A stretch of 63,467 bases of DNA, the filler included, from Reclinomonas americana ATCC 50394 (Eukaryota), in NCBI GenBank assembly GCA_048213135.1. It is 14 parts of 14 records of this genome, joined end to end, with 100 filler letters (N's around TTAATTAATTAA, not from the genome) between each part and the next. Parts side by side here need not be neighbours in the genome. Positions count along the whole stretch, not along the records: positions 4,767 to 10,011 come from AFZH01018811.1; positions 10,112 to 15,236 come from AFZH01018812.1; positions 15,337 to 19,042 come from AFZH01018814.1; positions 19,143 to 28,132 come from AFZH01018815.1; positions 28,233 to 29,635 come from AFZH01018816.1; positions 29,736 to 31,200 come from AFZH01018817.1; positions 31,301 to 34,795 come from AFZH01018818.1; positions 34,896 to 39,772 come from AFZH01018820.1; 6 more parts are not named here. One strand, given 5' to 3'. Positions 6,977-38,113 of this stretch are shown here, piece after piece (the stretch's first letter is position 1; each line of letters begins with the position of its first letter). Made by a program: the position numbers and the translations under genes. Below the pieces are notes generated by a model. It had not been told where the DNA came from. It did not search any database and saw only the letters and a list, made by a program, of their open reading frames with translations.

Positions 6977-8309
6977 TCACTTCTTTTGCTTGTTCTGCAC
7001 GGCGACCACGCGATCGACGAGGTCTTGCGATGCGTAGCATTGAGCCTGCGCACCCACATGCGCGTGTCAGCACCCTCGACGATACACAAACTGCCTCTCG
7101 AGCAGAACATACCTGTGCGTCGGCCTCGCGCTGCAGGCACCGATCGAGATCACCGAGCACCTGCTGTCGCAGACTCTGCAGGGCAGTGCGCACCGACAGG
7201 GAGCCAGCATCGGCAATCTGATACGCGATCTCCAGCGCTCGTGGCAGCACCTACAGGTAGGGAAAGAGGATCAGTCGGTGGCTTGAAGAAGAAAGCTGTG
7301 GGGTTTCACGCAACATCATCGACACTCGGGCACGCCTCCAGCACAACACCGCGCTTCGCCGCCTCGTCACCCGAAATCAACTCTCCACTCAACAGCAGAT
7401 AGTTGCTGACTTGCGAGTTGCCGACAATGCGCGGCAGGAAGAAGGTGCCGCCCATGCCCGGATGCAGGTTGAGCTTGGTAAAGTTGACGCCGAGCTGTGC
7501 GTTATTCCGACGACTGAGTGCCGAAACAGAATGAGATGAAGAAGAGCGAGGATTGTTGTACCTTGGCAGTGCTCGAGGCCACGCGAATGTCGGTGGCCAG
7601 TGCCACGCACAGTCCAGCGCCCACAGCTGTGAGTGGAGAGTCAGTCGCGAGGAGAAGCTCTTCTTCTATCTGCAGTGGGCGGACATACCGTGCCCATTGA
7701 TAGCCGAGATGACGGGCACTGGCAGCTGCAAGAGCGACAGGAAGCGACCGTAACTAATACAGCAGAAGGCACGCATGTGAGTGTGTGTGTTTGAAGAAGA
7801 AAGACAGACAGTGAGAGTGCAAGGCAAACGCAACAAGGCTCGCATGTGCTTCACATTGTCGGCTGGTGTCGATCGCGACCGCTCCAGCAGGAAGTCCAGG
7901 TCGCCACCAGCACTAAAGGCACGACCGGCACCTTACACAACAAGCATCCAGTGAGCGAGTGAGTCTCTGAGCAGAGTGAGGGAAGGGGGTGAGCGCGCAC
8001 CAGTGAGCACCACTGCTGAGAGTGTGTCAGGCGACTCGGCCTTGAGCTGATCGACCACTCGCACGAAAGCTTCGCCCATTTCCACGCTGAGTGCGTTGAG
8101 CTTGCTCTGTGGTGTGGCGATTTAGCAGGAGAGAGAGACTAAGAAGAGAGAGAGAGAGAGAGAGATGAGGAGAATGCAACTGGTCGATTGAGTGTGATGA
8201 TTGCCACACGCTTGTCGCGCTCTGCACGCGTGAGCAACACGGGTGCGTTGGCGTCGGAGGACATGAGGCGACGGAGAGGGGCGGTGGTGAGAAGTCGGCG
8301 CGCGAACAT
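6977..8309 (-). CDS. Mitochondrial enoyl-CoA hydratase/isomerase (crotonase) family protein
   Basis: 8 exons; presequence-like MFARRLLTTAPLRRLMSS; motifs ITLNRPSKLNAL, GRAFSAGGDL, PVISAINGHAVGAG, LHPGMGGT. Confidence 0.93.
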
Positions 8310-8480
8310 GGTCGGAAAAAAGAAATGCATGATAGGCGGGACGCAGGCTGCTGCTCTTGCTGCGAAGTCTGCTCGTTTCGTGCTTGTTCTAGAAGGCGCC
8401 TCACACAGAGCGTTGATCAGGGATGCTCTTTCCAGCTCGCCTGGAGAAGCTTGAGCACCAACTGCGAACTTCTTGGAGTC

Positions 8481-8596
8481 TGACTGTGGGATGCGATCGC
8501 CAGTGTACTGTGCAACGGAAGCGCTGCGCCCAACTCGCAGTCGGTCCTCCCCTCTCTTCCGTTGCGCAGTACACTGGCGATCGCATCCCACAGTCA
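8481..8596. repeat. 41-bp inverted repeat (hairpin) with 34-nt loop
   Basis: 8481-8521 is the reverse complement of 8556-8596 with one mismatch (G-U compatible on the + strand). Confidence 0.95.
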
Positions 8597-8981
8597 ATCT
8601 CACTTCGTCTTGTTGGCGTCAGTTTGTGACGCGATCACTCGTGCACTGTGCAACGGAAGCACTGCGCCCATCTCATAGTCGTTCCTCTTCCCAGCTCGCT
8701 AAGGCGAGTTTGCAGTGCCTATTACTGCCACGCAATTACCGGTGCACTATGCAATCGGCACCGCTGCGCCCAGCTCGCAGTCAATCCTCCTCCCTGCGCC
8801 ACGTGCACTGTTCATCGACAGAACCAATCCGTCCAGCAGAGATCGCGGTGTACGCTCATCGCATCCACACCACCCACTGCGCGTCCATCAGGCATGCGAT
8901 TCCCACTGTTTGACAATGGTTCCCACTCGCCGCAGCTCCAGCCATCGTCGTTCTTCCAAACAGGCACGATATACACTTCCA

Positions 8982-35345: not shown

Positions 35346-35861
35346 CCTTTACTCTGCTCTGCAGCCTTCCGCAGTCTTTCTCGTTCCCTCACTGTCGCTC
35401 AGACGTTGATCATCGTTCTCCTTCTCTCCCACATTGTACACTCCTCCGTCAGTCGCTCCTTCATTGCCCTGCTGTCACACGCGTGTCTCTTGCCATCTCC
35501 TGCCGTCTTATTCTCTCTGCAGCTCGTTGTCATTCTCACTCCCGGGCTACTGCATTGGCTGTGGCTCTCCTCCACTCTGCAGTTTCTTCTTCGTTCAGTT
35601 GTCGTTGTCTTCATGTTTCATCTCCATCCTCCTCCTCCCTCGCTCTCTCACACATCCTTTGACGTGTTATCTCGTCGCGCTTGGCTGCTGTTCTTGTTCT
35701 TTCCACCTTCTCTTTCTTTCCGGATACTATTCTCTTGCAATAGTTCATCCTTTGTCATTATCGTCGTCTCGCCTGCATCCTGCTCCTCTCGCACTCATTC
35801 TGTGTCGTCTCCTCCCTCTCACCCCCTCCCTTCCCCTCTCTCACCCCCTTCCCCCTCTCAG

Positions 35862-36217
35862 ACCTCATTCGTGACATCAACGATCCCGAACACCCCTACA
35901 CCCTGGAACAACTCAAGGTCCTCCGTCTGGAGCACGTGCACGCCGACGACGCACGGTCTGCCGTGCGCATCATGTTCACCCCGACGATCCCGCACTGCTC
36001 CATGAGCTCGCTCATCGGTCTGTCGATTCGCGTCAAGCTCGCTCGCTCGCTTCCGTCGCGCTTCAAGGTCGACGTCAGCGTCTTCCCCGGCTCGCACGCC
36101 TCGGAGGAGGCACTCAATCGGCAACTGAACGACAAGGAGCGTGTGGCGGCGGCGCTGGAGAATGGCCCGCTGCTCGAGGCCGTCAACAAGTGCCTCAACC
36201 GGGAGACCATGTTCTGA
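35862..36217 (+). CDS. CIAO2B: Cytosolic Fe-S assembly component CIAO2 (FAM96/MIP18), last exon
   Basis: [51 protein letters not shown]; upstream exon(s) not located. Confidence 0.93.
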
Positions 36218-36967
36218 GGAATTAAAGAAGGCTGTGTGTGTGTATCCATACCGTTGCGTTCCTCCTACTTGACTTGCCCTCAGGCAGGGAGACCATTTGC
36301 TGAAGAATTAACGAAGACTGGCCTCACCAACAACAACCACTCGACTGCTGCTCTGCTCCTTGCCAGGCTCTGTTGGTTTTCCTTGTGCGATACCAACACC
36401 ACTTGCTATTCTTTTTGGAATTCGGCGTCAAAGCCATGCTTGTCAAGAGCCGTGGTTTCTATTGCAGAAACGCCAGCATTAGCCATCTCGACATTTTCTC
36501 ATCGTTTTTGTGATGTTTCAGTTTCTGGTGCTCACTCAAGATGGTGATCATCATGCTGTTTGGACTAATAAGTTTTTGTTGCTGTTGCTGTTGTAGATTC
36601 GCGCATTAATTGCTTTGAAGTCCTCCCACTCCACATTGAGGCCGTCAGCAAGTGCCTCAACCGGGAGACCATGCTCTGAGGGGGTATGAATGTCTTCTGC
36701 CTACACTCCTCTCCCTTTACCTTCCCGCCACGTCTGAGCCAGTTAACAAGGAAGTTTAGACCATATTCTGAAGGATGAAAGAACAAGGGGAGTGCGCCAC
36801 GTCACTTGCCCTGAGGCCGTCCACGTTCTGAAGAGAGTCGTGCGTATTCGTTGCATTGCATTCCTCCCTCCACCTCCTTCCCCCCTTCCCCATTTCCCTT
36901 CCCCCCTTCCCCCTTTCCCTTCCCTCCATCCCTTCCCTCCTTCCCCCTTCCCCCCTCATCCCCCTTC

Positions 36968-38113
36968 TCACTTCCCCGCCACCGTCGGCCGCTTCTCCGC
37001 CAACTCCATAATGTAATTCCACTCGTCTTCGCGCACCGGCTGCACACTGAGGCGCGACTGACGGAAGAGCTTCATGTCGGCCAGTGCCGAGGACAGCGGT
37101 GGCTTGCCTGTGCGACAATGAGCGATGAAGGAGACAATGATCGCACACGGTGCTGTGCACACCTTTCACCGAGACACCGCCGTGCATCTTGAGCTCGGGC
37201 AGCGGAATCGGCCGCTTCATGTGCTTCACGTAGTCCCACGAGACGCAGTACCACTTGGGAGCGACGCGCTGCGACGTGCCATCATAGTACTGACTCTTGG
37301 CTGCGTTGAGGAGAGGCATGAGAGGGTCCCTTCTTGTTGCGTGGAAGACAAAGGGGCTGTCGCGCGCAACAATCAAACTGCGTCTCGTCCGGGTGCGCCT
37401 CGTCAGCCACCTACACGTATTAGTTATCGTTAATACGCAGGCATCACGCCACCACAACAGCTTGCCACTTCTGAATGGTACCTGGACAACACCAACAATG
37501 CCAGGATCTATCGCGAACCCGCGGAAGAATGAGCGACAGAACAGCAGCAGTGAGAAGGAAGGAAAGCATCGCAACTCTTGCCCGAGTGGTAAACTGGCCA
37601 CAACAGCAAACAACGAGCCACACTCAGTGAGTCACAGCATACAATGCAGGCGATTGCAAGAGATGCACTCAACAGAACGCCAGATCGCCCTTCTTCATGT
37701 CGTTCTTCATAAAGTTCTTGGCCTGCACATTACGCACACCATGCCAGTCCTACACAACAAGCAAGTCAGAGAGAGAGAGAGCAGAGACGAAAACGCCAGC
37801 TTGTATCATGCACCTCCGTCTGCACAACACACACACAGTGAGTGATCACAGATGCTCTTTTGCTTGCGTGCGTAGATGCAAAAGGCACCTTCACTCTGGC
37901 CATCTTCTCAATGCTGCACTCCTCCGGCTCACTCTTGATCAACCAGTATCCCACTAGCGAAGAAGACGAGCCAGACGCCGATGCGCGCTTGCTCTCCGGC
38001 TCATCTGTGCGCGACTACATAAGACACAAGACAGAGATACACAAGCAAGAGAGAGAGAGACACGAGCCTTCGTCGGGTTCCTCTGTCTTCAGTGTGCGCT
38101 TTTTGCTCGACAT
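36968..38113 (-). CDS. THYN1: EVE-domain protein (thymocyte nuclear protein 1-like)
   Basis: YWLIKSEP, WHGVRNVQAKNFM, GDLAFFYHS, PGIVG, SRLSVQPV; 9 exons including 6-nt and 18-nt exons. Confidence 0.94.

Follow-up and report, generated by a model that had tools for sequence, protein, structure and literature searches.

The introns of a 63,467-nucleotide (nt) stretch of DNA from Reclinomonas americana ATCC 50394 (GCA_048213135.1), hereafter the window, begin at 5' splice sites (donors) of two classes, whose consensus nucleotides after GU are displaced by one position with respect to each other. Class 1 consists of donors in the ordinary register, that is GT[GA]NG or weaker strings, and class 2 of the shifted GTT[GA]NG type, for which GTTGCG is typical. 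Exons that do not end in G are almost always followed by the shifted word, and exons that end in G almost never. The two classes have branch and acceptor signals in common and, as judged from the proteins that the introns interrupt, the same canonical cut in front of GT. As predicted from sequence, the two-class pattern is real and statistically strong within the 63 kilobases (kb); the mechanism offered for it below is a proposal.

Two donor registers and the last exon base

The two classes were recovered by a gene finder that contains no donor model. This Viterbi finder scores codon log-odds (self-trained on Pfam-matched exons), bare GT..AG ends and donor-independent intron features, namely length, a CT[CG]A[CT] branch motif and YAG; the last exon base (position -1) is never used. 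Its output comprised 205 introns, 180 of them <=140 nt long, and the commonest donor hexamer was GTTGCG (23/205), followed by GTTTGT (8) and GTGCGT (7). GTTGCG was the top hexamer in every version of the finder, including one without intron features (13/118). Across the window GTTGCG is present 73 times, against 50.1 +/- 6.6 in shuffled sequences, and none of 100 shuffles reached 73. Annotation-free counting of the base that precedes each motif was uninformative, owing to repeats and a general scarcity of GGTT.

The displacement of the consensus is apparent when a two-component mixture is fitted to positions +3..+8 of the predicted donors. The first component (weight 0.55) reads G (.55), H, G (.66), T (.79), G (.44) at +3..+7. 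The second (weight 0.39) has T (.78) or C (.18) at +3, followed by G (.86), C (.75), G (.86), T (.64), G (.44) at +4..+8. The class 2 consensus at +4..+8 is the class 1 consensus at +3..+7, and positions +7 and +8, which were not part of the seeds, mirror class 1 positions +6 and +7. When the motif-blind donors are instead divided by the -1 base alone, those after G peak at G +5 (40/75) and T +6 (36/75), and those after A, C or T at T +3 (45/105), G +4 (52) and G +6 (49). The initial annotation of this DNA had described two donor classes, with class 2 making up about 40% of donors and carrying the usual word behind an extra pyrimidine after GT; the mixture weights bear out the former statement, and the mixture consensus together with the logos split by -1 the latter. 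At +1..+6 class 2 can be written G-U-(U or C)-G-(C or A)-G, U being far commoner than C as the +3 spacer.

The register of the donor is tied to the last exon base. Among the 180 short introns, -1 is G at 28/39 GT[GA]NG donors vs 2/28 GTT[GA]NG donors (odds ratio 33, Fisher p = 7.2e-8). The remaining 113 short-intron donors have -1 G in 45 cases, and many of these 113 are mispredictions; the non-G calls in the thioesterase gene at 18569, 18423 and 17932, for example, all conflict with the reference-based junctions described below. Addition of a donor weight matrix restricted to +3..+8 gave a weaker contrast (-1 G at 59/105 vs 13/72, p = 4e-7), probably due to false sites attracted by the motif. 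In a strict subset of 27 introns that were stable across six parameter settings, -1 is G in 4/4 class 1 and 0/9 class 2 donors, one of the nine class 2 calls (13630) being contradicted by the ABCE1 references.

A second line of evidence comes from junctions fixed by homology. Our own spliced aligner, which demands only GT or GC together with AG, was used for ABCE1 (8 of 120 reference proteins aligned), for an Abhydrolase_2 thioesterase (17 near-full-length proteins of 109 homologues) and for UBIAD1, whose single reference is the intron-less open reading frame of locus L001 on a metagenome contig. In IMP3, four exons fit the chain of human IMP3 (7mq8_LZ) with no residue lost or gained, the boundaries falling at 46, 47, 48; 82, 83, 84; and 134, 135, 136. 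Three junctions of gamma-glutamyl hydrolase were placed on chain 4l8f_C, and two of enoyl-CoA hydratase by ECH_1 profile coordinates. Four sites were left out of the homology set, namely the thioesterase junction 17759-17738 with its five competing donors, the open-ended last ABCE1 donor at ~14117 and two UBIAD1 GC-donor calls at 25191 and 24518. This leaves 24 verified junctions, compared with 49 mapped in the initial annotation, and at these spliced alignment and exon contiguity show GT..AG ends and a reading frame that is restored upon removal of the intron. None of the 14 donors after G is of the GTYRNG type, and all 10 after A, C or T are GTT[GA]NG (Fisher p = 5.1e-7). The placing of class 2 at exon ends other than G, claimed earlier, therefore agrees with both the motif-blind set and the homology-fixed set, where no class 2 donor (0/10) follows G.

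Individual sites fared less uniformly. Every donor string quoted in the initial annotation is found at its coordinate and strand, except that two sites listed as recurrences of the pattern read GTTTCG (456) and GTTACG (63062). Of 17 class 2 donors that it listed, 13 were recovered exactly by the motif-blind finder and 16 once homology was added; the donor at 25955 is supported by neither. The finder missed 9673 (called 3 nt away), 10394, 18400 and 25955, the first three of which are supported by homology, and it misplaced three thioesterase donors and one ABCE1 donor.

The link to the exon end is a strong tendency, as the Fisher tests attest, and not the perfect 30/19 separation first reported. 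There are exceptions in both directions: G/GTTGCG is found at 15908 and 55802 (the slash marks the exon-intron boundary), and ordinary donors follow a base other than G at 3334, 22075 and 61240. Probably T/GTGAGT at 58852 is a further exception, being present at its coordinate at a point where the alpha-SNAP domain must go on. The true asymmetry is that donors in the ordinary register nearly always need a G at -1. Class 1 requires this G both where the intron side is strong (GTGAGT, GTGCGT) and where it is near-absent (GTCCCT, GTCTTC, GTTCTT), and after G this organism seems to place almost no demand on the intron side of the donor. Accordingly, -1 G is anticorrelated with intron-side consensus strength (p = 7e-8; p = 5e-7). 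The -1 base of motif-blind class 2 donors is T in 14, A in 8, C in 4 and G in 2 of 28 cases. This composition cannot be distinguished from that of the bases before GTTG across the window (G in 75/608; binomial p = 0.31), and G is below its codon-position expectation (2 observed, 9 expected, p = 0.002). Class 2 donors seem indifferent to -1.

Two side observations concern the same sites. Among the motif-blind donors G is nearly absent from -2 when -1 is G (1/75, compared with A 33, C 25 and T 16), such that GG/GT exon ends are avoided. At 17738-17759 (-) in the thioesterase gene, a span of 22 nt holds five GT donors in frame, A/GTCACG, G/GTTGGC, C/GTTGTG, T/GTGAGT and T/GTGAGC. Homology does not choose among the five, and it is possible that this is a natural tandem-donor site at which both classes compete.

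Position of the cut and shared splicing signals

If class 2 introns were cut one base further inward (G/TTGCG ... AGN/), both classes would be equally far from the TGCG word and would share one register, with intron length and frame unaltered. The encoded proteins make this barely credible. At the class 2 intron of ABCE1 the inward cut would turn Asn into Asp, and among 74 references (25 commonest motif forms) Asn is found in 52 and Asp in 5. In the thioesterase it would turn into Arg a Met that is present in 30/34 references. Furthermore, class 2 shows no preference for any one base at the start of the following exon (A 6, C 6, G 10, T 6). At the IMP3 donor 9673 the canonical cut gives His and the inward cut Arg; His is probably the residue at that position in human and yeast IMP3. 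Because the canonical cut keeps the conserved ABCE1 Asn and thioesterase Met and leaves the IMP3 exon coordinates contiguous, class 2 is, on this sequence evidence, cut at the canonical GT, and the inward cut is essentially excluded.

The two classes of intron are otherwise much alike. Both have CTCAC or CTCAT as their branch core (CTGAC also occurs) and (C)GCAG as their acceptor context. Between classes, the median distance from branch to acceptor is 17 nt vs 20 nt (p = 0.08) and the median intron length 68 nt vs 70.5 nt (p = 0.11), although the finder rewarded branch, length and acceptor equally, so this similarity is partly imposed and not independent. Class 2 introns vary little in length (mostly 63-81 nt), and phases are distributed 13/7/8 in class 2 vs 15/13/11 in class 1. 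With branch motif, distance to the acceptor and length in agreement, both classes can be taken as U2-type GT-AG introns; as evidence for shared machinery this agreement is weak.

Several other assignments were considered and rejected. Class 2 resembles U12-type introns in having a rigid intron-side donor motif and no exon-side requirement. Unlike them, it has the donor GTTGCG and not RTATCCTT, nothing in it resembles the TCCTTAAC branch site close to the acceptor, and its branch motif and branch distance are those of class 1. Class-specific pairing between donor and acceptor (UGCG with CGCA) finds no support, GCAG acceptors being present in 14/28 vs 41/73 introns (p = 0.66). An apparent enrichment of TAG acceptors in the predicted class 2 introns (7/28 vs 2/73) was gone in the homology-fixed set (1/10 vs 2/14).

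In alpha-SNAP, the C/GTTGCG donor at 59871 appears to start a long intron of ~495 nt (59377-59871, -), and the SNAP profile coordinates of the flanking exons agree within ~2 positions. If so, class 2 is not limited to introns of 60-80 nt.

How the displaced word may be read

The pairing of these donors with U1 was estimated with RNAduplex, using the canonical U1 5' end, from which the organism's own U1 may differ. Strong class 1 sites (G/GUGCGUG) gave -8.9 kcal/mol and the weakest G/GU sites -4.1 kcal/mol; an unshifted site lacking the -1 G (U/GUGCGUG) gave -2.3 kcal/mol and the class 2 site U/GUUGCGUG only -0.3 kcal/mol. Class 2 is thus predicted to pair worst with the canonical U1 5' end, and the suggestion in the initial annotation that such sites reflect routine shifted or bulged pairing to ordinary U1 finds no support in that form.

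We propose instead that the familiar division of 5' splice sites into exon-side and intron-side types may be present in this lineage in an extreme form. Class 1 donors would need little beyond G/GU, their intron side varying between GUGAGU or GUGCGU at one extreme and GUCCCU at the other. Class 2 donors would have no exon-side requirement and would carry the word G-H-G-U-G one nucleotide deeper, behind the +3 pyrimidine spacer. The small nuclear RNA (snRNA) helix on this word would be displaced inward by one register, leaving the spacer unpaired or bulged, and cleavage would remain in front of GU despite the inward helix. The RNA that reads the word would probably be U6, through its ACAGA region after hand-over, and perhaps U1 before. 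The identity of this RNA, the bulging of the spacer and the reason why the shifted form is preferred where -1 is not G all belong to the proposal. That a single spliceosome reads the same word displaced inward by one position, most likely at the U6 stage and leaving the +3 pyrimidine unpaired, we regard as an evenly balanced proposition. A broader claim is put forward more tentatively, namely that a spacer nucleotide between GU and the word read by the snRNA may be routinely accepted at ~40% of introns, which would amount to a rule tied to the exon-end base and not explicable by canonical U1 pairing.

Besides the partly imposed likeness of the two classes, three points weigh against this proposal. 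The class 2 duplex is predicted to be weaker than the unshifted one, and so a bulged U1 helix leaves the success of the shifted form unexplained. The rarity of H/GUGCGU is not accounted for by any simple count of pairs. Finally, the -1 base of class 2 fits neither the prediction of a shifted register (A) nor that of a bulged register (G).

It is also conceivable, although unlikely, that an snRNA has changed in this lineage: a variant U1, a U1 with an altered 5' end or a U6 changed around ACAGA would read GUUGCGU in the normal register, and the ordinary snRNA would read class 1. Such a change would be in keeping with the fact that canonical U1 is predicted to pair worst with class 2 and yet no donor is more strictly conserved than class 2 (GTTGCG in 23/205). 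However, the class 2 word is the class 1 word shifted by one, which points to one reader and not two, and a preference for G at -1, which is not observed, would persist if U1 were one nucleotide longer. Within the window, a scan with Rfam families gave 0 matches at the gathering score and no U1, U5 or U6 gene.

An improbable alternative holds that class 2 is recognised mainly without U1 pairing, GUUGCG being the binding motif of a protein factor of the U1C/LUC7 type or being read by U6 or U5 directly. LUC7 proteins are reported to distinguish between two kinds of 5' splice site (bioRxiv 10.1101/2022.12.07.519539). The predicted pairing of U1 with class 2 is poor, and the very weak G/GUCCCU is used (17/17 references), which shows that complementarity to U1 counts for little here. 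The agreement of the shifted class 2 word with the class 1 word would, however, then be a coincidence.

A purely historical origin, in which inserted elements (introners) would have brought a strong donor to non-G sites among older class 1 introns, is quite improbable. The strict motif, the lack of any need for exon context and the tight class 2 lengths would suit it. Compared side by side by eye, class 2 introns are nevertheless alike only in donor, branch and acceptor, and class 1 has the same length distribution and similar phases. The remaining possibility, that donor-like sites picked by hand in the earlier, tool-free mapping created the either/or pattern, as selection on total site strength can, is essentially excluded by the reproduction of that pattern by a finder blind to donor and -1 and by spliced alignments that ask only for GT/GC-AG.

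Several features of the class 2 donors have counterparts in other systems. Donors of the Entamoeba type (GUUUGU) make up one class only, whose consensus has its G at +5, as the normal register requires. They resemble the present donors in that U at +3 is tolerated or preferred, and G/GTTTGT is present here (8/205); they differ in that the word here is shifted and tied to -1. Shifted U1 registers at human 5' splice sites were reportedly described by Roca and Krainer in 2009. One-nucleotide +2/+3 bulges are experimentally accepted in human sites, as is, rarely, the shifted register (Tan et al. 2016, PMC4856993). Among 201,541 human sites, 54-68 are predicted to have a +2/+3 bulge and 36-51 a +3 bulge (Table 3 of PMC4856993). 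Like those human sites, class 2 has GUU followed by a consensus displaced by one base, with the cut still at GU. In contrast, such sites are very rare in the human data of that source and amount to ~40% of donors here, and the noncanonical register pairs better with U1 in the human sites, which is not predicted here for canonical U1.

A two-class architecture, AG//GUNNN vs NN//GURAG, is described for animals and plants and attributed to pairing with U5 loop 1 vs the U6 ACAGA region (PMC11732430). The donors studied here resemble it, as outlined in PMC9803359 (2022), in the anticorrelation of exon-end G with a strong intron side, in the near-even split and in one class being almost free of intron-side signal. 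They differ from it in that the intron-side class is GUUGCG(U) and not GURAG, which class 2 does not read at +1..+5, and lies one base deeper behind a pyrimidine. The unshifted intron-side class without a -1 G is, moreover, rare here, and the separation much sharper. The present case combines two known things, an intron-side class, but in the +1 register, at ~40% of donors. Searches of the open literature for GTTGCG/GUUGCG as a splice signal returned only primers and unrelated RNAs, with the proviso that text searches miss logos in figures.

Work on how the cut is positioned with respect to the U1 and U6 helices usually relies on rare human sites or engineered reporters. A displaced signal at about four in ten introns would permit genome-scale tests of register flexibility, of the U5-side vs U6-side model and of snRNA co-evolution. 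If the broader claim on a routinely accepted spacer is true, it would imply either that U1 or U6 has changed or that hand-over has a geometry unseen in model organisms, and would provide a natural system in which to ask how the cut site is set independently of helix register. In practical terms, gene finders trained on one donor matrix will get many of this organism's introns wrong.

Genes and other features of the window

The window is eukaryotic and gene-dense, with short introns and a G+C content of ~57%. It consists of 14 contigs with 13 identical 100-nt linkers between them. The genes named in the initial annotation were all found again by Pfam on open frames, and their positions and introns are collected in Table 1. 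Further Pfam genes encode a short-chain dehydrogenase, an FeS-assembly protein, ankyrin proteins, gelsolin/villin-like proteins, alpha-SNAP and a PQ-loop protein. The best identity of ABCE1 to any database protein is ~69%, an ESM Atlas search with a gelsolin exon yielded only generic gelsolin clusters, a metagenome search for near relatives returned a single locus of 37% identity, which served as the UBIAD1 reference, and no reference protein was obtained at E <= 0.001 for the enoyl-CoA hydratase (ECH) exon or the SNAP exon.

Table 1. Genes, introns and a micro-exon of the window, with donors (slash, exon-intron boundary) and support
Feature	Position	Strand	Donor	Support
Enoyl-CoA hydratase gene	7.0-8.1 kb	-		Pfam on open frames
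ECH intron	7251..7314	-	class 2 T/GTTGCG	finder, six/six settings; upstream exon ends at ECH_1 position ~176
ECH intron	7495..7561	-	G/GTACAA	ECH_1 profile 100-120, then 121-176
ECH intron	7627..7688	-	G/GTATGT	ECH_1 profile 81-98, split codon, 100-120
ECH intron	7754..7834	-	class 2 T/GTTGCG	gene finder only
IMP3 gene	9.4-10.7 kb	-		Pfam on open frames
IMP3 intron	9604..9673	-	class 2 C/GTTGTG	7mq8_LZ 134/136; finder's alternative 9670 adds one residue
IMP3 intron	9829..10394	-	class 2 T/GTTGCG	7mq8_LZ 82/84, split codon 83; spans linker 10012-10111
IMP3 intron	10503..10565	-	class 2 A/GTTGAG	7mq8_LZ residues 46/48, split codon 47; also motif-blind finder
ABCE1 gene	12.6-14.1 kb	+		Pfam on open frames
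ABCE1 intron	12756..13006	+	class 1 G/GTGAGT	8/8 references
ABCE1 intron	13093..13161	+	weak G/GTTCAT	8/8 references
ABCE1 intron	13378..13448	+	class 2 T/GTTGCG, phase 0	8/8 references
ABCE1 intron	13657..13729	+	class 1 G/GTGCGC	8/8 references; finder's 13630 call wrong
Abhydrolase_2 thioesterase gene	17.3-18.7 kb	-		Pfam on open frames
Thioesterase intron	17525..17582	-	weak G/GTGTTT	14/17 references
Thioesterase intron	17864..17926	-	very weak G/GTCCCT	17/17 references
Thioesterase intron	18002..18065	-	weak G/GTCTTC	15/17 references
Thioesterase intron	18145..18206	-	weak G/GTTCTT	14/17 references
Thioesterase 2-nt micro-exon TG	18207..18208	-		completes Met codon conserved in 30/34 homologues
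Thioesterase intron	18209..18283	-	class 2 A/GTTGCG	13/17 references
Thioesterase intron	18322..18400	-	class 2 C/GTTGCG	13/17 references; one more has the same donor, other acceptor
Thioesterase intron	18486..18547	-	G/GTGAGC	15/17 references
UbiA/UBIAD1 gene	24.5-25.8 kb	-		Pfam on open frames
UBIAD1 intron	24715..24779	-	class 2 T/GTTGCG	L001 spliced alignment and finder
UBIAD1 in-frame intron	24976..25047	-	G/GTGCGA	L001 alignment; finder read through
UBIAD1 intron	25368..25438	-	class 2 A/GTTACG	L001 spliced alignment and finder
UBIAD1 intron	25501..25573	-	G/GTCAGT	L001 alignment
UBIAD1 intron	25691..25769	-	G/GTTTGG	L001 alignment
Gamma-glutamyl hydrolase (GGH) gene	26-28 kb	+		Pfam on open frames
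GGH intron	26926..26995	+	class 2 C/GTTGCG	gene finder only; upstream exon has no PDB match
GGH intron	27144..27214	+	class 2 A/GTTGCG	finder; chain 4l8f_C exon contiguity within ~2 residues
GGH intron	27342..27397	+	G/GTGCGA	exons abut exactly, 4l8f_C residues 187 and 188
GGH intron	27506..27575	+	class 2 T/GTTGCG	finder; 4l8f_C contiguity within 1 residue
EVE/THYN1 gene	37-38.1 kb	-		Pfam on open frames
THYN1/EVE intron	37301..37370	-	class 2 T/GTTGCG	gene finder only
THYN1/EVE intron	37508..37575	-	class 2 A/GTTGCG	gene finder only
THYN1/EVE intron	37594..37673	-	class 2 T/GTTGAG	finder; upstream exon end is EVE profile position 47 exactly

The thioesterase micro-exon is flanked by two introns, one of class 2 with 75 nt and one of 62 nt with the donor G/GTTCTT, each with its own CTCAC branch motif. 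ABCE1 (12617-14136, +) is represented only by residues ~1-340 of ~605, corresponding to the FeS domain and the first ATPase domain. Its last exon stops at a G/GT donor near 14112-14117, and the 1.1 kb from there to the next scaffold gap (window up to 15236) is without ABCE1 homology; unless the second half is on the far side of the gap, the assembly is incomplete at this point.

The linkers (e.g., 4667-4766, 10012-10111 and 60893-60992) consist of 44 N, TTAATTAATTAA and 44 N and are mostly bordered by (AG)n or similar microsatellites. Since IMP3 runs on correctly across the linker 10012-10111, that join at least reflects the true order. At the start of the window (5-4248, +) a protein of ~1,170 residues is predicted, which is repetitive, rich in Thr, Ser and Ala and without a Pfam match, and which contains an open frame of 846 codons (264-2801).

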